A stretch of DNA of 14,972 nt from a virus: UHGV virus genome UHGV-1739818; one strand, 5' to 3'. Positions 2 through 12,298 of this stretch are shown piece by piece (within the stretch, counting starts at the first letter, position 1; each line of letters begins with the position of its first letter). The notes beneath the pieces are model-generated. The model saw only the letters and a list, made by a program, of their open reading frames with translations, had not been told where the DNA came from and did no database searches. A program made the position numbers and the translations under genes.

Positions 2-667
2 GAAGCTGCTAAGAACGATATGGACCCGAAATCGTTCGCTCAGGAGTACCTGGCCAGCTTTGAAAATATGTCCGGGCGCGTTTACTACCCGTTCGATCGT
101 AACGTGCATGTAAAACCGCTTCAGTTCAACCCTCGGTTGCCTATATGGGTAGGGCAGGACTTCAACATTGACCCGATGTCTTCAGTAATTTTGCAACCTC
201 AGCCAAATGGTGAGCTATGGGCAATTGATGAATTGGTGCTCTTTTCCTCTAACACGGCAGAGGTTTGTGATGAGCTTGAGAGACGCTTCTGGCGCTGGAA
301 ATCACAGATAACGGTATTTCCAGATCCGGCAGGTGCTTATCGCCAACATGCTCGCGGGGAGTCTGACGTCGACATATTCAAAGAGAAGGGATTCTTACGT
401 GTCGATTATTCGAAAAAGCACCCGCCAATTGCGGATCGTGTTAATGCTGTTAACCGAATGCTGATGACCGCATCTGGAGATATCCGGCTGTATATCGATC
501 CGAAGTGCAAGCATTTGATTGATTCACTGGAAAAAGTCATCTACAAGCCTGGAACACGAGATATGGATAAGACAGGTGGCATTGAGCATAGTGCAGACGC
601 ATTGGGCTATCCAGTACATCGTAGGTATCCAGTCAAAAACCGTGTTATTCTTGGTGGTTCTCGATAG
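2..667 (+). CDS. Terminase large subunit, C-terminal (nuclease-domain) portion; 5' end lies upstream of the window
   Basis: Frame is open from base 2 with no in-frame stop before the ATG at 20; stop TAG at 665-667. Acidic-residue pattern (WVGQDFNIDP, VFPDPAG, DIRLYIDP) resembles the RNaseH-like terminase nuclease domain. Sits immediately upstream of the portal gene. Confidence 0.7.
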   Translation, partial: EAAKNDMDPKSFAQEYLASFENMSGRVYYPFDRNVHVKPLQFNPRLPIWVGQDFNIDPMSSVILQPQPNGELWAIDELVLFSSNTAEVCDELERRFWRWKSQITVFPDPAGAYRQHARGESDVDIFKEKGFLRVDYSKKHPPIADRVNAVNRMLMTASGDIRLYIDPKCKHLIDSLEKVIYKPGTRDMDKTGGIEHSADALGYPVHRRYPVKNRVILGGSR

Positions 668-693
668 GTAAGTAATTATCTAAGGTTATTCAA

Positions 694-2289: not shown

Positions 2290-3177
2290 ATGAATCTGTG
2301 GCAAATGCTTTTGGCCCGTCGTGGTCTGATGGATGTCGCTGAAGCGCATGAGCGTGGAGGCGCTGGCGGTGTAGCTGCTGATAATGAGCAGAGTACACAA
2401 GATCCTGACAAACAGGGTGAACAAAAAGAGCAGCCGAAGGGCGATGACGAATACGCTGGCATGACTCAGGAAGAGTTACTGGCCGAACTTCGTAAAACCA
2501 AGAAAGCTGGTGCTGAACTGCTGAAGGAGAACATGAAGCGCAAAGAGAAAGAGCGCACATTGGCCGATCAGCTTGCTCAGTACGGTGATATCGATCCGGC
2601 TCGTGCTCGCCAGCTTTTAGAAGCTGAACAGGCCGCAGAAAACGCACGTCGTGAGGCGGAGCAAGCTGAACTGGAGCGTCGTGGTGAGTTCGATGCTGTT
2701 AAAAAACAGATGATCGAAGCACACCAGGCAGAGCTGGCACAGCGTGACGAACGTTATGCAGCACTGGAAAGTGAAAACGCATCACTGAAATCTCAATTAG
2801 TCGAGATGACCGTGGGCGCTTCGTTCAGTAACTCTCTCTTCCTACGTGACAAAGTTCTGATGACCCCGGCAAAAGCCCGCGTGATCTACGGTTCTCATTT
2901 TGAAGTGGGTGAAGACGGTAGCGTAGTGGGTTATGACAAACCGGCAGGTCACAAAGAACGAGCTGTTCTGGTTGACGGTGAAGGTAAGCCGTTGCCGTTT
3001 GAATCCGCGATTGAACGCATTGTGCGGGCAGATCCGGAAGCTGACGCATTGATGCGTAGCGAAGCCAAGCAGGGTGTAGGCTCACATTCCAAATCGACCT
3101 ACACAATATCCCAACCGAAGAACAAGTCGACTATGGATAAGTTGGCCTCCGGTCTGGGGAAAATTGGACTTAAGTAA
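2290..3177 (+). CDS. Head scaffolding protein (putative)
   Basis: 295-aa ORF between portal and major capsid genes; highly charged, Ala/Glu/Arg/Gln-rich central segment predicted to be coiled coil (…AEQAAENARREAEQAELERRGEF…); SD AAAAGGA 6 nt upstream of the ATG. No protease motifs seen. Confidence 0.55.
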   Translation: MNLWQMLLARRGLMDVAEAHERGGAGGVAADNEQSTQDPDKQGEQKEQPKGDDEYAGMTQEELLAELRKTKKAGAELLKENMKRKEKERTLADQLAQYGDIDPARARQLLEAEQAAENARREAEQAELERRGEFDAVKKQMIEAHQAELAQRDERYAALESENASLKSQLVEMTVGASFSNSLFLRDKVLMTPAKARVIYGSHFEVGEDGSVVGYDKPAGHKERAVLVDGEGKPLPFESAIERIVRADPEADALMRSEAKQGVGSHSKSTYTISQPKNKSTMDKLASGLGKIGLK

Positions 3178-3202: not shown

Positions 3203-4078
3203 ATGCCATTACTGCGTGAAGAAGCTGAAAAGCTGTCTAACAACGAACTTGAACAGGGTGTGATCGAAACTATCATCGATCGCGATGACCTGTTTGCCAT
3301 CCTGCCTTTTATGAAAATTAATTCAAAGGCATATCTGTACAACCGTGAAAAAACGCTGAGTGAAGCTACCTTCATCGACGTTAACGACACCATCCCTGAA
3401 GGTGCAGCAACCTTCGAAGAATGCGTTGCGAAACTGCGTATTCTGGCTGGTGACGTAGACGTTGATAAATTCCTGGCGACCACTATGGCCGACACCAACA
3501 ACCAGTTGGCTATTCAGGTTCGTCAGAAAGTTAAAGGTCTGGCTCGTGCGTTCCGTCGCAACCTGATTTTGGGTGACTCCAGCTCCAACAACAAGGCGTT
3601 TGACGGCATTCCACGCCTGATGCACGCAGATCAGAAGATCGATATCGCCGGTGCATCTATGACTTTCTCTATGTTCGACGAACTGGTCGATGCGGTGAAA
3701 GATCTTGGTGCTGACTGCATCATGATGCGTTCAGAGCACCTGCGTGCTTACCGTGCGCTGCTGCGTACAGTAAACGTAGGTCCGTCTGAAATCATGATGG
3801 AGAACTTCGGTCGTCCGATGCTGTGTCATAACGGCGTTCCGTTCATCATCAACGACTTCATCCCGACCGATGCTGGCAAAGCAAGCATCTACTGCCTGCA
3901 TCTGTCAGAAGAGAACGGCGTTACTGGTCTGTATGGCGGCGACAACGCAGGTATCGTTGTTGAAAACATTGGTACTGTACAGAACAAAGACGCAGTACGT
4001 ACCCGTGTGAAGTGGTACTGCTCTCTGGCGAATAAGCACGATAAGGCTATCGCTGCACTGACCAATGTAAAAATTTAA
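3203..4078 (+). CDS. Major capsid protein (putative HK97-fold, no delta domain)
   Basis: 291-aa ORF after the scaffold gene with SD AAAGGGAA; strongly biased codon usage suggesting high expression; followed by an intrinsic terminator. Length fits a capsid protein that relies on a separate scaffold. Confidence 0.7.
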   Translation: MPLLREEAEKLSNNELEQGVIETIIDRDDLFAILPFMKINSKAYLYNREKTLSEATFIDVNDTIPEGAATFEECVAKLRILAGDVDVDKFLATTMADTNNQLAIQVRQKVKGLARAFRRNLILGDSSSNNKAFDGIPRLMHADQKIDIAGASMTFSMFDELVDAVKDLGADCIMMRSEHLRAYRALLRTVNVGPSEIMMENFGRPMLCHNGVPFIINDFIPTDAGKASIYCLHLSEENGVTGLYGGDNAGIVVENIGTVQNKDAVRTRVKWYCSLANKHDKAIAALTNVKI

Positions 4079-4087
4079 TCAGTGTGG

Positions 4088-4105
4088 TAGATAGGTAGTT
4101 ATCTA
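4088..4105. repeat. Inverted repeat TAGATA-N6-TATCTA between capsid stop and terminator
   Basis: tagata (4088-4093) is the reverse complement of tatcta (4100-4105). A related TTATCTA element occurs at 676-682 in the terminase-portal junction. Confidence 0.35.
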
Positions 4106-4114
4106 TGTTAAAGG

Positions 4115-4138
4115 GTGGGCTATACGCCCACTTTTTTT
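4115..4138 (+). terminator. Rho-independent terminator downstream of the major capsid gene
   Basis: GTGGGC (4115-4120), loop TATAC, GCCCAC (4126-4131), followed by T7 (4132-4138). Confidence 0.7.
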
Positions 4139-4151
4139 GGAGGAGCGAGAA

Positions 4152-5072
4152 ATGCCAGAACAAAAGATGAAGATTACGGAAGAGACATTTTCGGATTTTA
4201 CGGGGCATATGTGCCGTGCCGGATTTACCAATTCTATCTCCGATGAACCTTTAACCGAGCGGCAACAAAGTCAGCTATCTGCTTGTTTGCAGGCGGTTCC
4301 CCTCTCCCAATCCGTAAACATAACCCCGGCTTCACCGTCAGTTTTGGTTGGGAAAACTGTTCAACTTAGTGCAGGTATTAGTATGGGTAAGAGTGCCAGT
4401 TCATTCACCTGGAAGTCAGCCAATGACCAAATTGCAACCGTTAACGGCACTGGATTAGTAACTGGCGTAGCACCAGGCAAAGTAAAAATTACTGCAACTG
4501 ATCAGGAAACCCAGCTTTCCGCTTCAGTGGAAGTCACCGTAAATCCGGTAGCCGTTCAATCCGTAACGGTAACGCCAGAATCAACGTCTGTTGAGAAAGG
4601 GAAATCAGTCAGTCTGAAAGCGAATGTTCAGCCGTCAAATGCGACGAATAAGGCTGTTGCCTGGTCTTCCAAAAATGAAGATAAGGCAACGGTAGACCAG
4701 AGCGGGAACGTTACTGGTGTAGAAGTTGGCACTGCGACGATTGAGATCGTTTCCCAAGATGGCAGCAAAAAGGGAACTGCAACGGTGGAAGTAACTGCGC
4801 CTGTTGTGGCTGTTACCGGCGTCGAAATCGACCCAAATAGCACAACCGTTGAGGCAAACAAAACTGTTCAGCTGACCGCAAATGTCGAGCCGGCAGGAGC
4901 AACAAATAAAACCGTTACTTGGGAATCCAAAAATACCGAATTTGCAACGGTGGATAGCGAAACCGGTGTTGTAACTGGCGTTGCGGCTGGTACTGCCACA
5001 ATCGAGGTTACTACCCAAGATGGTAGCCACAAAGCGACAGCGACCGTAGAAGTCACTGCTGCACAGGAATAA
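4152..5072 (+). CDS. Protein with at least three tandem Big_2 (bacterial Ig-like) domains; candidate capsid decoration or virion surface protein
   Basis: ATG at 4152 with GGAGGAG 7 nt upstream (the track start at 4137 is a TTG lying in the terminator T-tract). Repeated segments of type …TATVDQSGNVTGVEVGTATIEIVSQDGSKKGTATVEVTA… are characteristic of Big_2 domains. Confidence 0.7.
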   Translation: MPEQKMKITEETFSDFTGHMCRAGFTNSISDEPLTERQQSQLSACLQAVPLSQSVNITPASPSVLVGKTVQLSAGISMGKSASSFTWKSANDQIATVNGTGLVTGVAPGKVKITATDQETQLSASVEVTVNPVAVQSVTVTPESTSVEKGKSVSLKANVQPSNATNKAVAWSSKNEDKATVDQSGNVTGVEVGTATIEIVSQDGSKKGTATVEVTAPVVAVTGVEIDPNSTTVEANKTVQLTANVEPAGATNKTVTWESKNTEFATVDSETGVVTGVAAGTATIEVTTQDGSHKATATVEVTAAQE

Positions 5073-5080
5073 TCAATATT

Positions 5081-5098
5081 GGGCGGCGAAAGCCGCCC
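5081..5098 (+). other. Stable GNRA-tetraloop hairpin without a U-tract
   Basis: GGGCGGC-GAAA-GCCGCCC, a perfect 7-bp GC stem, 9 nt after the Big_2 gene stop. Followed by ATGTAGAG rather than a T-run, so not a canonical terminator. Confidence 0.4.
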
Positions 5099-5116
5099 AT
5101 GTAGAGAGAATGCGTT

Positions 5117-5551
5117 ATGAAACCAGCAAAAATTGTTTTATTAGAACCGCAATTTTCCGGTTATTCGGGAATGTTGTGCGGCGTTCAGTTCGAGAACGGG
5201 GTGTCCGTAGCGGAGTTGCCTTTTATCGATCAGCAAAGGATTTGTGCCTCAATGCGAGCATCAACAGTCGAGGGCAAAAATGTTTCTCCGTCTGCCGCAT
5301 ACAGTGATCGTGGCGAGTTGACCGCAGACCTGATTACCGAGCCAGCAGCACCTGACATTGTGCCAATGAAACGTGGGACACCAGATGAACCGGCCAAACA
5401 GATCCAGACTTTCACACGAGAAGAGTTGGAGTCAATTGCAGACAATGAAGGCATTGCCGGTCTACGTGTGATTGGTAATCAGGTTGGTGTCAAAGCGAAA
5501 GGAATTGTCGAGATGATTGAAGGCATCCTGAAAGCACAAGGCGGTGAGTAA
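5117..5551 (+). CDS. Hypothetical protein (144 aa)
   Basis: ORF whose stop overlaps the next start (TAATG at 5549-5553), indicating translational coupling; purine-rich stretch upstream. C-terminal 40 aa loosely resemble a helix-extended-helix motif (low confidence). Confidence 0.5.
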   Translation: MKPAKIVLLEPQFSGYSGMLCGVQFENGVSVAELPFIDQQRICASMRASTVEGKNVSPSAAYSDRGELTADLITEPAAPDIVPMKRGTPDEPAKQIQTFTREELESIADNEGIAGLRVIGNQVGVKAKGIVEMIEGILKAQGGE

Positions 5552-6384
5552 TGGCGCAGATCGACTCGTATCGTAGCGGTGAAGCTGTTTCCCTTTCATT
5601 TGCCTTCAACGTGCTGGATATCGAATCTGCTACCTACACAGTAAAGGACAGCACCGGGGCTATTCTCGTTGATGGCGAGCCGCTAGAAATTACCAGCGGT
5701 CAAATGTCGATTCCGGTTGTCGTGTCGGCTGAATATAACCAGCTCTCTGAGAAAGAACGCGATCTGCGGTACGTCATTGTGAAGGCTGTTGCATCGGGTC
5801 TGACGCATGAAGAGCGGCAAATGTATGTTCTGCTGAATAGTTTTGAACTGTCGATACCAGAACAGTCGTTTGCAACTGTCGCTGATGCTCAAATGCAGGC
5901 GATCGATATGCTGAATGGGGACACTTTGCTGTCGGATGGTGAAGGCTTAATGCGCAAGCGTCTCATTGAGGCTACCAGACGAATTAAAACTTTACCGTTC
6001 TCAATCCGCAAAATTCTACGTATCGACTTTGACCGATACGATCGCCCTCAAAATATGCTGAATGTGTATGACATTCCGTGGGGAGCAGATGGAGCGTACC
6101 GGCATGATTTAGTCGATTGGGAAAAGATGACGCAGGAGAAGTTTGAAGAGTTCCCTGACTACTTCAAAGAAGCGTTGATGCTTGCCGTTGTCAACGAAGC
6201 GTGTGAGATCGCAAATGGCAATGATGTTGCCGCAGCACGAGAGGATGGCATTTTGTCAGAATCCATCGGTGAAACAACCAACATGTACCGTACCGGTAAA
6301 GCTGCAAACGTGCATGTGGCTCGTAGTACCTGGCGCTTGCTGGTCAGTTACATCAACAACCGTATGATTGTTCGCCGTGCGTAA
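5551..6384 (+). CDS. Hypothetical structural protein (277 aa); head-completion or connector candidate by position
   Basis: Translationally coupled to the upstream ORF; lies between the capsid module and the adaptor/neck genes. No family recognised by eye. Confidence 0.55.
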   Translation: MAQIDSYRSGEAVSLSFAFNVLDIESATYTVKDSTGAILVDGEPLEITSGQMSIPVVVSAEYNQLSEKERDLRYVIVKAVASGLTHEERQMYVLLNSFELSIPEQSFATVADAQMQAIDMLNGDTLLSDGEGLMRKRLIEATRRIKTLPFSIRKILRIDFDRYDRPQNMLNVYDIPWGADGAYRHDLVDWEKMTQEKFEEFPDYFKEALMLAVVNEACEIANGNDVAAAREDGILSESIGETTNMYRTGKAANVHVARSTWRLLVSYINNRMIVRRA

Positions 6385-7619: not shown

Positions 7620-7640
7620 GTCAATCGGTAAGTATATACT
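7611..7640 (+). promoter_or_regulatory. Candidate sigma70-like promoter upstream of the major tail gene
   Basis: TTGAAT (7611-7616), then TATATA (7633-7638, spacer 16) or TATACT (7635-7640, spacer 18). The -10 region lies inside the 16-bp palindrome. Confidence 0.3.
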
Positions 7641-7643
7641 TAC
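7628..7643. repeat. Perfect 16-bp palindrome GTAAGTATATACTTAC (TAAGT-N4-ACTTA core)
   Basis: Read directly; 50 nt upstream of the major tail start codon. Candidate operator for a dimeric DNA-binding protein. Confidence 0.6.
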
Positions 7644-7693
7644 TGTTAGCGCAATGAATGCGTAGAATTAACGGAAAAAGGAGTTTTCCATCA

Positions 7694-8440
7694 ATGTCTA
7701 ATACCCATGTAAAAAACATCAAACTTGGTGCCTGTAAGGTGTCGTTTGGTGGTGTGGATTTGGGTTACACCAAAGGTGGTGTTCAGGTTGAAGTAGCCAC
7801 TGAAACGCTGAAAGTCACTGTCGACCAGCACGGCCAGACAATTATGTCAGAGCTGGTGCAGGGTCGTAACATTACCATTACTGCGCCGCTGGCCGAGTCT
7901 GTGTTGAAAAATATGGTCGATCTGATGCCGGGGTCTACTCTGAACGAAGACGACAACGCTGTGACCATCACTTCCGCACAGGGTGTCAACCTGATCGACG
8001 TAGCCAAAGAGCTGGTTCTGACTCCGCAGGACACTACCGACTACGTTCTGACCATTCCGAAAGCTGCGACCGCAGGTAACTTCACCATGACTTACCAGTC
8101 TGATGATGTTCGTGTGTTCTCTGTTCAGTTCAGCGCATACCCTGATGACGAAGGCGTTCTGGGAAGAATGAGCGGCCCTAAACCGGTAAAAACCGTGTCG
8201 ATCAAACCGGAATCTCCAACTGTAAAAGCAGGGGAGACTGTGCAACTGACAGCCGAAATCACTCCAGCTGATGCCGCAGACAAAACCGGTGTTTGGGAAT
8301 CCGAAGACCAGGAAAAGGCCACGGTAGATCAAACGGGTCTGGTACGTGGTGTGGCGCAGGGTTCTACAAATATCTCCTTCACCAGCAATAGCGGTGGTAA
8401 GAAGGCTACTAAGTCAGTAACGATTAACTCCGCAGGTTAA
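7694..8440 (+). CDS. Major tail (tube) protein with C-terminal Big_2 Ig-like domain
   Basis: ATG 7694 with AAGGAG 10 nt upstream (the track start at 7658 lacks an SD). C-terminal about 90 aa is a Big_2-type domain (…VQLTAEITPADAADKTGVWESEDQEKATVDQTGLVRGVAQGSTNISFT…), as in lambda gpV. Located before the G/GT pair. Confidence 0.7.
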   Translation: MSNTHVKNIKLGACKVSFGGVDLGYTKGGVQVEVATETLKVTVDQHGQTIMSELVQGRNITITAPLAESVLKNMVDLMPGSTLNEDDNAVTITSAQGVNLIDVAKELVLTPQDTTDYVLTIPKAATAGNFTMTYQSDDVRVFSVQFSAYPDDEGVLGRMSGPKPVKTVSIKPESPTVKAGETVQLTAEITPADAADKTGVWESEDQEKATVDQTGLVRGVAQGSTNISFTSNSGGKKATKSVTINSAG

Positions 8441-8453
8441 TCAGTAATTAAGC

Positions 8454-8479
8454 AGAGGCTCAGGATGGGCCTCTCTTTT
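8454..8479 (+). terminator. Candidate weak intrinsic terminator after the major tail gene
   Basis: AGAGGC (8454-8459), 9-nt loop, GCCTCT (8469-8474), then CTTTT. Short U-tract, so possibly partial. Confidence 0.35.
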
Positions 8480-8495
8480 AAAAGGATTTTAACCA

Positions 8496-8813: not shown

Positions 8814-9163
8814 TTTCCCGCGATGAATCCGGGACAAGGACCGTCTCAATAGATCTCGGATTCTATTTCAGTCGTGTAGTTGCTCACTACGCCGTGTCGC
8901 CATTAGAGCTACTGAACGTTCCTCTCACGATGTTCTGGATGCTCAGTCGCAATATAGACCGTCTGCGTGCGGAAGAGGATGTCCGCAACTTACAAGTCGC
9001 TCGTGCGTCCCAGGCGGATGGCGAGGCTGTGAAGGCGTTCATGGAGGGTTTGCAACTCAGGATTGGAAGACCAGTCGTAACAGATAAAGTCTACGATCCA
9101 AGCCAGGATAAGGCAGACCCTGACGCCAAAGAGCAACTGATGCAAATATTTGGCAGAGGATGA
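8777..9163 (+). CDS. T-domain reading frame of a G-T tail assembly chaperone fusion, expressed by -1 programmed frameshift from 8496..8813
   Basis: The -1 frame is open from 8777 (after TGA at 8774-8776) to 9163 and overlaps the last 37 nt of the G-like ORF. There is no SD before its first internal start (GTG 8894). Its stop overlaps the tape measure start region. Confidence 0.6.
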   Translation, partial: RKRKSGWRRGKVISRDESGTRTVSIDLGFYFSRVVAHYAVSPLELLNVPLTMFWMLSRNIDRLRAEEDVRNLQVARASQADGEAVKAFMEGLQLRIGRPVVTDKVYDPSQDKADPDAKEQLMQIFGRG

Positions 9164-9170
9164 CAAGGGA

Positions 9171-10856
9171 ATGTCACAAAACGTAGAGTTTATCCTGTCG
9201 CTGGAAGACAAACAGTTTACAGCGTCAATCGATCGTGCGGGGAAACTGCTTACTCGATTTGGTGAGCAGGTAACAAAGCCTGCTCAAAAAATCCAAACCT
9301 TTGAACGCTCTTTGGGTTCGGTCGCCCGTATCATTGGCGTTCTGGAAAGCAAGCTCGATTCTACGGCAGATAAACTACAGGATGTAGCTGCCGGTTTTGA
9401 GCTTGCTTCAGATGCTACGCGTAAAATGCGTGGCAACATCACCAGCCTCAATTCTGGTCTTAAAGCCCTGATTGAGCGCGTCGATACGACAACTTCTTCA
9501 GTAGATAAACTCACCGCGTCATTACGTAAAGTGCAATCAGAGCTAAATGATTTCTCTGATTGGGCGACCTATGCAAGCAAAAGCGCAAGCCGCTTTGGTA
9601 CGGAGGTCAAAGAAGCCTCTGCGTCCGTGAGTGGCATGAATACGCGCCTTAATACCACGACGAAGCGACTCAGTAATTGGGGTGTCACAACGAGTCAGGC
9701 TGCCGAGGGACTGAAAAAGGTTCGTGAGCAGATGGACGAAGTTATCGGACGTCAGCAACTGATTAGCAAGCCGGTACGCGTTCGTACATCTGGAAGTGGC
9801 GATGGTGGTAGCGGGCGGCGTAGCGGCGCTTCTGGCCATAGCGGTAAAAGTAACGAAGGAGGTATGTTCTCTGGCCTTCGTGGCAACATTTTCCTGCTTG
9901 GCGAGATCGGAGATGCAGCCAGAACGGTTACTGACATCATGTTTGGGTGGCAGAAGCCTATTGTTGAAGCTGCGGCCGAAATGGAACGTATGCGGGTGAT
10001 GCTTCGAGGGTTGAATAAGGAGAAGTCCAACCCGGGCCAGGCTGCCGCTGATGATATGAAGTACATCGTAGACATGGCGCAAAATGCGCCGTTCGCGATG
10101 CAGGCGTTAACAGATTCCTTCGTGAAGTTTCGTTCTGCTGGCTTAGATCCAACCGATGGTTCTCTGAAGGCGCTGGTGGACTCCGTTGCTCGTTTTGGTG
10201 GTGATAGTGAGCTGTTGAAACGTGCGGCTGTGGCCGTTCAGCAGATGTCCGGTAAGGGCGTTGTGTCAATGGAAGAGCTACGTCAGCAATTAGGTGAAGC
10301 CGTTCCTAACGCGATGCAGGCAATGGCAGACGCCGCAGGCATCACTATGGGGGAACTGACTAAAGCCGTTGCCAGCGGTACGGTTGAGGCAAAACAGGCG
10401 TTGTCTCTGATGTTTGTTGGTCTGCGTGCGGAGAATGAGAACGCAGCGAAAGACATGATGCAAACCTACACAGGTGCGCTGGCGCAACTTCAGACGTCAT
10501 TCACGTTATTTGCTGATCGGGTTGGTCAGGCCGGATATCTGGATTCTCTATCGAAGGGGATGAAAGAACTGGCTTCAATCATGAATAGCGCCGAAGGGAT
10601 TTCGTTTGCCAATTCTTTAGGCTCGGGGTTAACGACGGCAATCGATGGGTTGCGTCAGCTTGCTCAATGGTTAGCAAAGAACCAAGAGCTGGTAATTAAT
10701 CTCGGTAAGGTCGTGGCCGCGATGGTTGCGTTCAAACTGATGCGAGCAGGGATCATGGGGGTAGTTGGCGCAGGCAGCCAGATGGTTAGCACCTTTGCCA
10801 CGATGGCGACCGCCATACAGACTCCATTTAACCTCGGCGCTACAGCAGTAAGATGA
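9171..10856 (+). CDS. Tail tape measure protein, N-terminal/major segment
   Basis: ATG 9171 with GAGGA 10 nt upstream (the track start at 9150 is a TTG without SD). Coiled-coil N-terminus, Gly/Ser-rich linker, and a region typical of tape-measure core domains (…NAPFAMQALTDSFVKFRSAGLDPTDG…); hydrophobic C-terminal segment. Confidence 0.8.
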   Translation: MSQNVEFILSLEDKQFTASIDRAGKLLTRFGEQVTKPAQKIQTFERSLGSVARIIGVLESKLDSTADKLQDVAAGFELASDATRKMRGNITSLNSGLKALIERVDTTTSSVDKLTASLRKVQSELNDFSDWATYASKSASRFGTEVKEASASVSGMNTRLNTTTKRLSNWGVTTSQAAEGLKKVREQMDEVIGRQQLISKPVRVRTSGSGDGGSGRRSGASGHSGKSNEGGMFSGLRGNIFLLGEIGDAARTVTDIMFGWQKPIVEAAAEMERMRVMLRGLNKEKSNPGQAAADDMKYIVDMAQNAPFAMQALTDSFVKFRSAGLDPTDGSLKALVDSVARFGGDSELLKRAAVAVQQMSGKGVVSMEELRQQLGEAVPNAMQAMADAAGITMGELTKAVASGTVEAKQALSLMFVGLRAENENAAKDMMQTYTGALAQLQTSFTLFADRVGQAGYLDSLSKGMKELASIMNSAEGISFANSLGSGLTTAIDGLRQLAQWLAKNQELVINLGKVVAAMVAFKLMRAGIMGVVGAGSQMVSTFATMATAIQTPFNLGATAVR

Positions 10857-11860
10857 GCTTCTCCAGCCTATCTCAGTCCATTTTGAAAGATATCACCAAT
10901 ATGGTCGTGAAGTCGCAAATCACGCTGCCTCTAATGAACATGTTGGGGATGGGAACCACCGCAGCTGGTAGTTCACAGAGTGGCAATTTGCTCACTGGAG
11001 TTGCTTCCGCCGTTGCCAATCAAGGGGTACGAATGGGCAACACTGTTAACGGCGACAAGTCGGTGGGAGAAGCCACGAAGGAGACGTCCAGTTCGGTAAC
11101 TGGATTGGGGCAAACAACACAGCAGACCACCAGCGCAATTGGCACTGCAACAAATGCGATTGGTAGCTGGGTATCAGGGCTATTTGATAGCACCGAAGCC
11201 AAAGATGCTGAAACAAAAGCAGTGAAGGACTCCATCTTCTCGATGCAGAACCTCAGCTCTGTTACCGGCGCTCTGTCTGCCGCGTTTGCAATGCTTGGAG
11301 CTAATGCTTCCGGCTCTGGTAATAAGTGGTTGAATTTCGGCGCGACAGTTGCATCTGGTTTGGTTTCAGTATGGGCTGGTGGTGGATTCGATGGATTGAT
11401 GTCCGGTTCTTCTGGCTCAACTTCCGGGTTCAACAATCTGACCAGTTCTGCTGCCGATGGCACGAATGGTATTCCTGCAATTCCGAAGTTTGCAAATGGT
11501 GGCATATTCGGAAAAGACGGCGTGATCCCGCTCCGGGCATACCAGAAAGGCGGTATCGCCAACTCACCTCAATTGGCGTTGTTTGGGGAAGGCGATATGA
11601 ATGAGGCGTATGTTCCATTGCCTGATGGTCGAACAATCCCTGTAACGCTCAGTACCGATGGTATGAGTGGAGGAGGAAATGTTCTTTCTCCGGTATCAAT
11701 TGAGATCAACGTCCATAGTGACGGTAGCACAACTGAATCCGGCGATACAGAAAGCATATGGAACAATGCCGCTCAACGGATGAAAGCAATCGCGCTTGAG
11801 ACTATCGCTCAAGAGAAACGCCCTGGCGGATCACTCAACCCAAACACTCAACGTAACTAA
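10853..11860 (+). CDS. Tape measure protein, C-terminal segment, encoded as a separate ORF in the -1 frame
   Basis: Starts at ATG 10853 overlapping the upstream stop (ATGA). Gly/Ser/Thr-rich with a FANGGIFGKDGVIPL…GEGDMNEAYVPLPDGRTIPV block resembling conserved tape-measure C-terminal motifs. Confidence 0.65.
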   Translation: MSFSSLSQSILKDITNMVVKSQITLPLMNMLGMGTTAAGSSQSGNLLTGVASAVANQGVRMGNTVNGDKSVGEATKETSSSVTGLGQTTQQTTSAIGTATNAIGSWVSGLFDSTEAKDAETKAVKDSIFSMQNLSSVTGALSAAFAMLGANASGSGNKWLNFGATVASGLVSVWAGGGFDGLMSGSSGSTSGFNNLTSSAADGTNGIPAIPKFANGGIFGKDGVIPLRAYQKGGIANSPQLALFGEGDMNEAYVPLPDGRTIPVTLSTDGMSGGGNVLSPVSIEINVHSDGSTTESGDTESIWNNAAQRMKAIALETIAQEKRPGGSLNPNTQRN

Positions 11861-11865
11861 CTATC

Positions 11866-11887
11866 GACTGCCCCGACCGGGGCAGTC
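11866..11887 (+). other. GC-rich hairpin after the tape measure stop (9-bp stem, no U-tract)
   Basis: GACTGCCCC (11866-11874), loop GACC, GGGGCAGTC (11879-11887). Followed by TCACAAGG rather than a T-run. Confidence 0.45.
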
Positions 11888-12238: not shown

Positions 12239-12275
12239 GTATCTGGATAAGTAAGTACTAATTTACTATCATTGT

Positions 12276-12298
12276 GGCGCTGACAGGATGTTAGCGCC
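12276..12298 (+). other. Hairpin in the M-L intergenic spacer
   Basis: GGCGCT (12276-12281), 11-nt loop, AGCGCC (12293-12298), followed by TACTTATTTC. Confidence 0.3.

Follow-up and report, generated by a model that had tools for sequence, protein, structure and literature searches.

A capsid-gene terminator, an Ig-like protein gene of variable domain number and an intercistronic RNA hairpin in SSU5-type phage-plasmids

In phage T7, the leaky intrinsic terminator Tphi follows gene 10, the major capsid gene, and the REP elements in malEFG and the hairpins of the puf operon are intercistronic stem-loops that stabilise mRNA. The Ig-like protein pb10 of T5 is 164 aa long. Its N-domain binds the capsid and its C-domain is Ig-like (Vernhes et al., 2017; PMC5292684). 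Set beside these systems, the locus studied here is ordinary overall: a post-capsid terminator and a dispensable Ig protein belong to the textbook picture of tailed phages, and the gene is a known feature that public records already annotate as “Ig-like domain-containing protein.” The searchable literature yielded neither virion proteomics nor cryo-EM or binding data for the Ig protein of SSU5-type relatives, and was silent on the operators, repeats and virion proteome of SSU5.

The window (the whole 14,972-nt stretch of DNA that was analysed) is the late structural operon of an SSU5-type phage-plasmid, with 98.4% identity to Escherichia phage Cyrano and 80% to SSU5. Its genes run in the order terminase, portal, scaffold, major capsid protein (MCP), Ig gene, 144-aa gene, adaptor, etc. 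The MCP gene (HK97-fold; 3203–4078, + strand) matches phrog_212, major head protein (E = 2e-105); its product also matches the Pfam families SrpI-like, GP7 and SU10_MCP, and the Cyrano and SSU5 annotations call it MCP. Behind it, the three features named in the original prediction (a terminator, an Ig gene and a second hairpin) were all found where they had been placed. In a fold scan of the window, both hairpins lay beyond the most stable 1% of 36-nt windows (−14.1 kcal/mol), and both are kept in relatives. An Rfam scan of 3900–5300 gave a sole, sub-threshold match on the minus strand (Bp1_162; 27.5 bits, gathering score 50); both hairpins fall outside the described RNA families.

Comparisons were made across 67 relative loci (the window and 66 others); the related-locus search returned 54 loci from IMG/VR and 2 from genome contigs (3-sequence alignment). 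Expression was taken from published Cyrano RNA-seq, which is gene-level and low-count, has no 3′-end mapping and derives from bacteria within macrophages, not from an induced culture. The best explanation overall, and one that we hold to be probable by a modest measure, is that the locus combines a capsid-gene terminator, a modular display protein and a non-terminating RNA stem-loop.

The Ig-like protein, its N-terminal module and its neighbour

The Ig-like gene (4152–5072, + strand; 306 aa plus stop) matches phrog_215 (E = 1.7e-100), “structural protein with Ig domain,” category head and packaging. ATG 4152 is its likely start, since GGAGG (4140–4144), part of the Shine-Dalgarno sequence GGAGGA (4140–4145, + strand; TAGGAG in relatives), sits 7 nt upstream and since the N-terminal alignment with a paralogue described below begins at this Met; the Cyrano annotation starts the gene 5 codons later. 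Three tandem Big_2 domains fill 4311–5057 (+ strand), at aa 54–131 (4311–4544), aa 137–215 (4560–4796) and aa 223–302 (4818–5057). They are recovered as three stretches by PF02368 (223 bits vs. a gathering threshold of 22.8; E = 2.9e-67) and as three confident beta-sandwich Ig domains by AlphaFold2 (pLDDT > 90), so that the tandem Big_2 protein first read from the letters alone is confirmed. The domains are not recent duplicates, because Tandem Repeats Finder detected no DNA-level repeats in 4000–5200. Among the sequence matches in the PDB are 7x30, a “Hoc-like protein,” and 9kmh, a Big_2 “decoration protein gp29,” and Foldseek with the full-length model returned generic multi-Ig matches only, which are uninformative on virion location.

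Ahead of the Ig domains stands an N-terminal module (aa 1–53; 4152–4310, + strand) with a predicted beta-beta-beta-alpha-beta fold (AlphaFold2, pLDDT 88) and matches to phrog_35209 (E = 4.6e-34) and phrog_916 (E = 2.3e-8). The latter is the family of the next gene, a conserved gene of 144 aa (5117–5551, + strand; phrog_916, E = 4.7e-70) whose N-terminus (5117–5260) is paralogous to the module, aligning ungapped at 28–32% identity with 8 invariant residues. Beyond this N-terminus come a linker and a C-terminal domain that is only weakly HeH/Rho_N-like (weak matches to Rho_N and DUF7440 in family members). The module was always N-terminal in the best 150 of 157 representative clusters (taken from a representative-library search; an earlier profile search was length-biased and gave short fragments only), and natural variants keep it after Ig-domain loss. 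A PDB profile search gave no meaningful structural homologue, Pfam holds no family for it, and its BFVD matches are uncharacterised phage proteins only.

This architecture, a small anchor-type domain (aa 1–53) joined to three Ig domains, matches the layout of Hoc and pb10. By analogy, the Ig protein would be displayed on the capsid in the manner of Hoc and pb10, but by an anchor of a new type: the ~50-aa N-terminal domain would dock onto the capsid or procapsid and carry variable outward-facing cargo, here three Big_2 domains, and the protein would work as do T4 Hoc and T5 pb10, i.e., as a dispensable decoration for surface display or adhesion.

A broader reading, which we put forward only tentatively, takes the module to be a widespread phage capsid or procapsid docking domain reused in tandem, and couples it with a palindrome regulon (see below). 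The docking domain may then be an undescribed one, with neither a Pfam family nor a solved homologue; one copy may bear display cargo (0–3 Big_2 domains, proline-rich repeats or low-complexity tails), while the other may bear the C-terminal, weakly HeH/Rho_N-like domain for nucleic-acid binding, and the pair, that of Yersinia pestis pMT1 included, may form a natural plug-and-display system.

Alternatively, the module could dock both proteins elsewhere (portal/neck, scaffold, terminase or tail), or both could be assembly or packaging chaperones like lambda gpFI, with the Ig domains secondary in role. The build of the neighbour, with its conserved C-terminal domain behind module and linker, could mean such a packaging or assembly role, and tail proteins bear Big_2 domains just as often, including many that form tail tubes or fibres. 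We nevertheless regard this as unlikely: a chaperone is not expected to bear proline-rich repeats or a set of 0–3 exchangeable Ig domains, PHROG files the family under head and packaging as a structural protein, and the tail tube protein of the same phage already has an Ig domain of its own.

The capsid-gene terminator and the adjacent palindrome

Between capsid gene and Ig gene lies an intrinsic terminator (4110–4138, + strand), as the original prediction had held. Its core is a 6-bp G+C stem (4115–4120 with 4126–4131) closed by the loop TATAC (4121–4125); in the window allele, the stem 4113–4120 with 4126–4133 comprises six G-C or A-U pairs and two G·U pairs, G·U and A-U pairs extend it from 4110, and a run of seven T (4132–4138; T5–T9 in relatives) ends 13 nt before the ATG of the Ig gene. 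A G+C stem-loop followed directly by a U-tract, on the coding strand and 3′ of a stop codon, is what defines an intrinsic terminator, and folded alone the element reaches −15.0 kcal/mol (z = −4.3), a stability attained by none of 200 shuffles. All 67 loci have it, nearly base for base, including the two that lack the Ig gene. Six of ten pairs are invariant, the others vary only to wobble pairs, and no compensatory change was seen in the stem among relatives; the structure is thus backed by conservation and energy, not by covariation. The conservation of its sequence exceeds what a terminator needs.

The window itself carries a private allele, with three clustered substitutions (GCCCACCCTTTTTGTAGG to GCCCACTTTTTTTGGAGG) that turn the canonical GCCCACCCTTTTT into GCCCACTTTTTTT. 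This allele was found in none of the 66 other loci, 129 plasmids or 158 complete E. coli genomes, and its stem energy is −12.3 kcal/mol vs. −16.6 for the canonical form. Cyrano has the canonical allele, and it is to this allele that the RNA-seq refers. There, RNA after the terminator was ~8–11-fold lower in one condition (low-count, gene-level values) and ~2-fold lower in a second, where log2(FPKM+5) values were near background. In MB6, the only condition with signal, the scaffold gene stood at ~57 FPKM, the MCP gene at ~158–216, the Ig gene at ~19–20 and the next gene at ~13–20, and the lowered read-through that had been proposed is plausible in view of the step from MCP to Ig gene. A leaky terminator would keep capsid mRNA several-fold above the mRNA of all later head and neck genes.

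Because every locus has the terminator, even those without the Ig gene, it is best assigned, from this comparison of sequences, to the capsid gene and not to the boundary of a cassette. It follows that it would set the dosage of everything 3′ of the capsid gene. The proposals that it brackets the Ig gene and that it tunes the dosage of that gene specifically therefore fall.

An AT-rich hairpin at 4087–4106, past the capsid stop codon but ahead of the terminator, had escaped the original prediction. This palindrome (GTAGATAG-GTAG-TTATCTAT; no strand assigned) folds and stays 98.3% paired across 17 IGR1 variants, with both-side changes at three pairs. It belongs to a dispersed motif, approximately TAGGTAAGTA-N-TACTTACCTA, which occurs at 5 sites in the window (12 matches vs. 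0.36 expected) and at 27 sites in the Cyrano genome, 26 of them intergenic. These 27 sites may constitute a genome-wide regulon, the palindrome serving either as dispersed operator for a master repressor of the P1-C1 type or as a phage-specific RNA-processing signal.

More specifically, the copy at 4087–4106 could be a promoter or operator, from which transcripts starting at ~4116, inside the 5′ half of the terminator stem, would run past the terminator and place the Ig gene and downstream genes under regulated transcription of their own. The largely intergenic sites in Cyrano are often followed directly by TATCAT, TATGAT or TATTAT (here, the next letters are TATGTT), copies overlap three of nine sigma-70-like matches in the window, one lies 30 nt 5′ of the putative repressor gene (CYRAN_45), and Cyrano RNA rises after the copies that precede the scaffold and tail-tube genes. 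Across this very copy, however, Cyrano RNA drops ~10-fold, and RNA starting at 4116 would still form a 5-bp stem with a U-tract. Several copies end just 3–17 nt 5′ of a start codon, too near to serve as the promoter of that gene, while many lie 0–20 nt past a stop codon and would equally fit an RNA 3′-end or processing element or a roadblock operator. We therefore consider a promoter or operator here improbable.

Variation among relatives and the downstream hairpin

The Ig gene varies widely among relatives. Three Big_2 domains occur in 34 of the 67 loci, two in 3 and one in 21 (a low-quality Y. pestis draft, L044, whose 220-aa-type gene lacks an intact ORF, is counted beside the two-domain loci); the N-module carries a non-Ig tail in 4, and the gene is a pseudogene or remnant in 2 (L009 and L065) and absent from 2, the isolated Escherichia phage PhiR41_1 and one Citrobacter plasmid. 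By lineage, three Ig domains are found in E. coli/Salmonella, two in Y. pestis, one in Klebsiella and none in others. The 220-aa version of Y. pestis pMT ends at the motif DGSHKATATVEVT, common to domains 2 and 3, and domain number may shift by in-frame recombination between the repeated domains. Two relatives of 390 and 441 aa (P0053 and P0057), candidates for four or five domains, were rejected as chimeras in which portal or scaffold sequence is fused to an Ig part. Of the Ig gene, PhiR41_1 retains only ATGCC, and of the spacer behind it only the 3′ part, which makes it a case of secondary deletion and not an empty ancestral site; an entire Ig gene can thus apparently be deleted with viability kept. 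Because of this isolated phage, the Citrobacter plasmid and the pseudogenes of L009 and L065, the gene appears dispensable for virion production. The accessory nature that had been claimed for it is borne out by its 0–3 domains, its pseudogenes and the two gene-less loci, and the comparison of gene order that had been proposed did find relatives without it.

Acquisition as an independent, moron-like cassette delimited by its own terminator and hairpin, the other half of that claim, is by contrast quite improbable and already largely refuted. The gene is indeed present or absent among close relatives, the downstream hairpin stands only where gene or remnant does, and a Tad2-like anti-defence gene occupies the same slot in distant relatives, so that the position accepts accessory genes. 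Against this, the terminator is found in gene-less loci too, PhiR41_1 is a deletion derivative, and the first ~50 aa are a paralogue of the N-terminal part encoded by the neighbouring core gene, with which the Ig-slot gene, there with a non-Ig tail, is also paired in Xenorhabdus and one distant IMG/VR contig. Nor is the gene a moron, since a consensus scan of 3300–6300 found no promoter-like site, the spacer 5′ of the Ig gene included, and since its expression in the lysogen does not rise above prophage background (CYRAN_6 of Cyrano, normalised reads ~7 in LB vs. a moron cut-off of ~34).

The second hairpin (5080–5099, + strand) starts 7 nt past the Ig stop codon and leaves 17 nt to the next ATG, and in it the predicted perfect 7-bp G+C stem (5081–5087 with 5092–5098) and GAAA loop (5088–5091) are joined by an additional T5080–A5099 pair, making 8 bp; no U-tract follows. 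Its energy is −18.2 kcal/mol (z = −5.0; 0 of 200 shuffles as stable). It accompanies every version or remnant of the Ig gene and is absent from the two gene-less loci, and a fold of −12 to −23 kcal/mol was obtained for each of the 25 unique spacer variants. With arms registered by hand from the fold of each variant (the MAFFT alignment was out of structural register), 95.8% of stem positions pair across 15 unique variants, a level reached by none of 2000 shuffles, and both-side changes occur at all eight positions. Since the stem covaries, the element qualifies, on comparative evidence, as a selected RNA stem-loop. Its loop is not conserved: GAAA alternates with TTTC, GAT, TAT, ATA, TCTG, GTAA, CTAA, ATAT and TACCT, and the GNRA identity originally proposed is lost with it. 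Two further perfect, T-less G+C hairpins lie at other late-gene junctions. A separate suggestion, that this hairpin and the following ribosome-binding site are a diverged duplicate of the capsid terminator and its ribosome-binding site, formed along with a tandem duplication of the N-module, was unsupported: local alignment of the two spacers was not above shuffles in most of 29 locus pairs (window p ~0.3–0.4).

The downstream hairpin does not appear to stop transcription. None of the 25 spacer variants has a + strand T run after the stem, and Cyrano RNA shows no drop from the Ig gene to the next gene across it (gene-level, low-count). Most likely it would act as an intercistronic barrier to RNases, giving either 3′ protection to the upstream segment or 5′ protection to the downstream cistron, whose ribosome-binding site begins ~5 nt past it; because the Ig gene and the next gene are equal in RNA abundance, an effect as 3′ stabiliser is not visible. 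That it instead acts on the other strand or as DNA (an antisense terminator, or a cruciform or recombination hotspot for gain and loss of the Ig gene) is very improbable: although it ranks first as a minus-strand terminator-like site in the consensus scan (8 pairs, tail ATATTGATTA; TTTT in the two variants L010 and L012), although eight near-identical loci have the exact loop inversion GAAA to TTTC, a palindrome-type DNA event, and although the PhiR41_1 deletion takes the hairpin out, most variants lack the minus-strand T run, there are no minus-strand genes (in Cyrano) or promoter-like sites (in the window) within kilobases downstream, and the stem drifts by compensatory changes that include G·U intermediates (U·G in L034, L057 and L012), which count as pairs only in + strand RNA.

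Comparison with described systems

Among the SSU5-type phage-plasmids are pMT1 of Y. pestis, the pHCM2-like plasmids of Salmonella, and plasmids of Klebsiella and E. coli that carry resistance. The lineage-variable number of Ig domains could serve as a typing marker among them, and the putative surface protein could be a handle on virion adherence to the environment; should the N-module suffice by itself to anchor a protein on the capsid, it could serve in phage display. Two hairpins ~1 kb apart are under different constraints here: the terminator is frozen in sequence, whereas the T-less hairpin drifts via compensatory changes and loop inversion.

The downstream hairpin resembles the REP and puf stem-loops in being a stable G+C stem-loop without a U-tract between cistrons of one operon, and in being conserved as structure and not as sequence. 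It differs in being a single short hairpin with no REP consensus and no Rfam family, and the Cyrano gene-level data do not show an excess of upstream over downstream RNA. The terminator recalls T7 Tphi, as both are G+C hairpins with a U run directly after the capsid stop, within a long late transcription unit; in T7 capsid mRNA exceeds that of downstream genes, as the low-count, gene-level figures for Cyrano suggest here. Unlike Tphi, it is presumably read by host RNA polymerase, has an AT-rich palindrome 5′ of the hairpin, and is near-invariant in primary sequence and loop across Escherichia, Salmonella, Yersinia, Klebsiella, Citrobacter and Buttiauxella.

Proteins of the Hoc/pb10 type sit on the outer capsid surface, at hexamer centres, a position that is at most putative for the Ig protein, and homology of the presumed anchor to the C-terminal domain of Hoc or the N-terminal domain of pb10 was sought and not found. 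As in Hoc of T4 and RB49, three tandem Ig-like domains are attached to a small domain, capsid-binding in Hoc and presumed to be an anchor here, and the protein appears likewise non-essential. The anchor is C-terminal in Hoc but N-terminal here, and although RB49 Hoc domains are among the fold matches (E = 9.8e-11, rank 42), S-layer proteins, cadherins and LigA score higher, so that the likeness is to the generic Ig fold only.

With T5 pb10 no sequence or fold match was found. The presumed anchor of the Ig protein is predicted to fold as a small alpha/beta domain, that of pb10 being alpha-helical, and the Ig domains vary from 0 to 3, with the anchor domain duplicated in the next gene. In layout, however, the correspondence is with pb10: both are siphovirus proteins in which an N-terminal anchor domain (predicted, in our case) precedes an Ig-like domain that is exposed in pb10 and presumably so here, pb10 is dispensable and the Ig protein appears so too, and the 142-aa one-domain variants of Klebsiella and some E. 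coli relatives share its size as well as its organisation.

The Ig-like gene and its natural variants

Nucleotides 3203–5600 of the window share 98.4% identity with Escherichia phage Cyrano (an SSU5-like phage-plasmid of E. coli LF82), 96% with another E. coli phage-plasmid and 80% with Salmonella phage SSU5, and ~940 PLSDB plasmids carry related sequence, among them Yersinia pestis pMT and plasmids of Salmonella, Enterobacter, Citrobacter and Klebsiella. According to Pfam, PHROG and public annotations, the genes run in the order large terminase (3′ end, 20–667), portal (694–2268), scaffold (2290–3177; DUF6651, phrog_206), major capsid protein (MCP, 3203–4078), the Ig-like protein (4152–5072), a 144-aa protein (5117–5551) and a head-tail adaptor (5551–6384), with neck and tail genes onwards. 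Such a locus is to be expected in this phage family, which has many known members, and public records already label the gene Ig-like; only the N-terminal module of the Ig protein and a dispersed palindrome merit further specialist attention. Further along, the tape-measure gene is one annotated 1525-aa gene in Cyrano (10565–15142) and two ORFs of 568 and 335 aa in the window (9150–11860), a difference that a frameshift, mosaicism of the tail module or faulty assembly could explain.

We prefer ATG 4152, the start originally predicted, to that annotated in Cyrano (CYRAN_6, 4965–5870 of record L001, beginning at the second ATG, window 4167, 5 codons or 15 nt further 3′), because a good ribosome-binding site (GGAGG, 4140–4144) precedes it and the alignment with the paralogue described below begins at this Met. 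The product is, as proposed, a tandem Big_2 protein: three such domains (E 2.9e-67), confidently modelled by AlphaFold2 at aa 54–131, 137–215 and 223–302, follow an N-terminal module (N-module, aa 1–53), an architecture that we regard as established. Sequence and fold searches with the whole protein matched generic multi-Ig proteins only. A further Ig domain (phrog_1280) is found at the C-terminus of the major tail protein (7658–8440).

Sixty-seven loci were compared between the stop codon of MCP and the start of the gene for the 144-aa protein: the window plus 12 phage or plasmid records with annotation, 52 contigs from IMG/VR, one Xenorhabdus contig and one MAG. Three Big_2 domains (306/307 aa) occur in 34 of the 67; three others, Y. 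pestis pMT included, have two domains (220 aa), and a Y. pestis draft of the same type (L044) is too poor in sequence for an intact ORF. One domain (142/147 aa) is found in 21 loci and an N-module with a non-Ig tail in four. Relatives without the gene, which the original prediction had suggested seeking, also exist: it is absent from two loci and a pseudogene or remnant in two more. We count this natural loss and domain-number polymorphism as established, and the gene is variable and, on comparative grounds, dispensable. The domain retained in one-domain versions differs between lineages and the two-domain version terminates at DGSHKATATVEVT, a motif common to domains 2 and 3, which indicates in-frame recombination between repeats. 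In Escherichia phage PhiR41_1, an isolated and propagated phage, the gene's first bases (ATGCC) run directly into the 3′ end of the spacer that normally follows it, which marks the loss as a secondary deletion. Two database proteins from Logan contigs (P0053 and P0057) were rejected as longer Ig arrays, being fusions of a portal or scaffold N-terminus with an Ig array that arose either through chimeric assembly or through a large in-frame deletion taking out the capsid gene.

The N-module and its paralogue

Residues 1–53 of the Ig protein match phrog_35209 (E 4.6e-34) and, unexpectedly, phrog_916 (E 2.3e-8), to which the 144-aa protein of the next gene belongs. The two N-termini (4152–4310 and 5117–5260) align without gaps at 28–32% identity, with M1, K5, F13, G18, F25, S30, Q39 and A44 invariant, and the first ~50 aa of the two products are paralogous. 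Modelled alone, the N-module is predicted with confidence (pLDDT 88) to be a small beta-beta-beta-alpha-beta domain, for which we found no Pfam family and no solved homologue. Its profile recovered 157 clusters from 1.84 billion representative proteins, at the extreme N-terminus in all 150 of the 150 listed. The members that we read or aligned are mostly 130–350 aa long and combine a linker with a motif conserved at the C-terminus (YT.EEL..IAD..GI.GLR.I....GVKGRSI.ELI..IL.AQ) that weakly matches Rho_N and DUF7440; a few carry Ig-like domains in its place. Ig-less natural variants retain the module as 72–92 aa proteins in Klebsiella, Enterobacter and Buttiauxella, and the tail is also non-Ig in the Xenorhabdus contig (L014) and in locus L067, where it consists of proline-rich PKPPVVEK repeats.

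The N-module may dock the Ig protein on the capsid or procapsid, with the Ig domains projecting outwards, and we consider such capsid decoration somewhat the better bet. Possibly the N-module pair instead serves a non-decoration role, e.g., as an adaptor in packaging or assembly resembling lambda gpFI, as the weak HeH/Rho_N-like matches of the neighbour's C-terminal domain would allow. In LB-grown Cyrano lysogens the Ig gene lies at prophage background (~7 vs. a cut-off of ~34; PMC9928086), and it is therefore not a moron.

The capsid-gene terminator and the AT-rich palindrome

The predicted terminator is present, with a 6-bp G+C stem (4115–4120/4126–4131) and a TATAC loop, and ends 13 nt 5′ of ATG 4152. 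G·U and A-U pairs lengthen the stem from 4110, T7 occupies 4132–4138, and the fold (−15.0 kcal/mol, z = −4.3), like that of the hairpin behind the Ig gene, passes the threshold of −14.1 kcal/mol that sets off the most stable 1% when 36-nt segments are folded throughout the window. An AT-rich hairpin followed by GGGTGGGC-TATAC-GCCCACCC-T5 occurs in every enterobacterial locus compared, the two without the Ig gene (PhiR41_1 and a Citrobacter plasmid) among them; Xenorhabdus and L067 have a slightly altered form (GGGTGAGGC-GNRA-GCCCACCC-T7) and no AT-rich hairpin. We take the conserved hairpin and U-tract directly after the capsid gene as established, and they are a property of that gene, not of the Ig gene. 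The “bracketing” of the Ig gene in the original prediction is incidental, since the terminator occurs also where the gene does not.

The GGGTGGGC-TATAC-GCCCACCC element is nearly invariant in Escherichia, Salmonella, Yersinia, Klebsiella, Citrobacter and Buttiauxella, whereas the flanking coding DNA is only 75–80% identical. Among 17 distinct variants, six of ten stem pairs are invariant, the remainder vary only to wobble and the loop is almost invariant; the terminator is frozen in sequence, not covarying. Constraint on the stem-loop exceeds what termination alone would explain. The window itself carries a private allele at 4131–4140 (GCCCACCCTTTTTGTAGG to GCCCACTTTTTTTGGAGG; three substitutions close together, CC to TT plus T to G), with a weaker stem than the canonical form (−12.3 vs. 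−16.6 kcal/mol), a T run of 7 vs. 5 and a stronger ribosome-binding site. No second instance turned up in the 66 remaining loci or in the 129 PLSDB plasmids and 158 complete E. coli genomes in which the region is present; the allele could be genuine or a product of sequencing error.

Transcript levels come from the log2(FPKM+5) values per Cyrano gene in Misson et al. (2023; PMC9928086; Supplementary Table S1), here converted to FPKM; bacteria inside macrophages at 6 h (two replicates) were the one condition in which late genes gave appreciable signal. The values there are 4.75/4.78 for portal (~22 FPKM), 5.97/5.92 for scaffold (~57), 7.35/7.79 for MCP (~158–216), 4.65/4.57 for the Ig gene (~19–20) and 4.66/4.14 for the gene after it (~13–20). 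In these low-count, gene-level data from the canonical allele, RNA is ~8–11-fold lower downstream of the terminator, which is consistent with a leaky terminator, short of proof. The terminator probably holds capsid mRNA above that of all later genes; the dosage effect originally proposed is reasonable, but, as the terminator is universal, it concerns the capsid gene vs. everything downstream and not the Ig gene specifically. The Cyrano major tail protein gene (~340 FPKM; PMC9928086) likewise stands far above its neighbours, and in the window a terminator-like hairpin, AGAGGCTCAGGATGGGCCTCT plus CTTTT, lies 3′ of this gene (8450–8480).

The AT-rich hairpin (4087–4106) is one copy of a dispersed palindrome, approximately TAGGTAAGTA-N-TACTTACCTA, found at five sites in the window (665–682, 2172–2189, 4088–4105, 7625–7644 and 12244–12265; 12 matches vs. 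0.36 expected) and at 27 in Cyrano (L069–L071), 26 of them intergenic. Many copies lie 0–20 nt 3′ of a stop codon, several precede a G+C hairpin, some precede a −10-like TATCAT and one lies 30 nt upstream of a putative repressor gene; in relatives, compensatory changes maintain the symmetry of the capsid-gene copy. No description was found in the literature searched. The palindrome might serve as an operator dispersed over the genome, as an element of late promoters or as a signal for RNA processing. Were it a promoter or operator, transcripts might start within the terminator's 5′ arm; however, RNA falls across the 4087–4106 copy.

The hairpin behind the Ig gene and the combined account

Downstream of the Ig gene, the perfect 7-bp G+C stem (5081–5087/5092–5098) with a GAAA loop is as predicted, and an outer T-A pair extends it to 5080–5099 (−18.2 kcal/mol, z = −5.0). 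It occurs only where the Ig gene or a remnant exists, and 25/25 distinct spacer variants fold to a G+C hairpin (−12 to −23 kcal/mol) placed 6–11 nt 3′ of the stop codon and 15–22 nt 5′ of the next ATG. In a set of 15 distinct hairpins, pairing is seen at 95.8% of stem positions, with both-side changes at every position, and 0/2000 shuffles of the 3′ arm matched the observed pairing, although registering the arms by hand favours pairing somewhat. We count this covarying, T-less hairpin as established; in its evolution, structure is what is kept. Loop sequence varies, and no variant has a T run 3′ of the stem; the GNRA loop emphasized originally is therefore incidental and the element is no coding-strand intrinsic terminator. 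Eight near-identical relatives (e.g., L005, L028 and L030) carry the exact inverse, TTTC, for GAAA (5088–5091) on the same stem, a palindrome-mediated loop inversion.

RNA does not change across this hairpin in the same low-count, gene-level Cyrano data. Two further perfect T-less G+C hairpins stand at other late-gene junctions (window 11866–11887, the most stable in the window at −22.3 kcal/mol; Cyrano 15148–15169 and 22468–22490), where Cyrano RNA-seq likewise revealed no step-down. Within another hairpin (12276–12298) lie both the ATG and the ribosome-binding site of the gene starting at 12288, which suggests translational control. We tentatively propose, at slightly under even chances, that the hairpin behind the Ig gene acts as an RNase barrier at the cistron boundary. 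An antisense terminator or DNA-level element is weakly suggested by a terminator scan and by the loop inversions, against which stands the lack of antisense gene context.

That the Ig gene is an independent cassette is largely refuted by the universal terminator, the lack of a promoter in a consensus scan, the N-module paralogous to the neighbour and the occurrence of the gene pair in distant relatives too. “Independently acquired,” as first suggested, is mistaken as a description of the complete gene, given that paralogy, although the Ig array is exchangeable cargo. In L067, a Tad2-like anti-Thoeris gene (about 1820–2090; PF11195, E 2.5e-23) lies directly 3′ of the capsid terminator, and this position is therefore a general accessory-gene slot; in Xenorhabdus, a similar, internally shortened ORF, recognised only by sequence similarity, lies between the terminator and the N-module gene.

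Taken together, terminator, decoration and RNase barrier form an account that we hold to be marginally favoured as a whole. Within it, capsid display of the Ig protein would parallel that of T4 Hoc.
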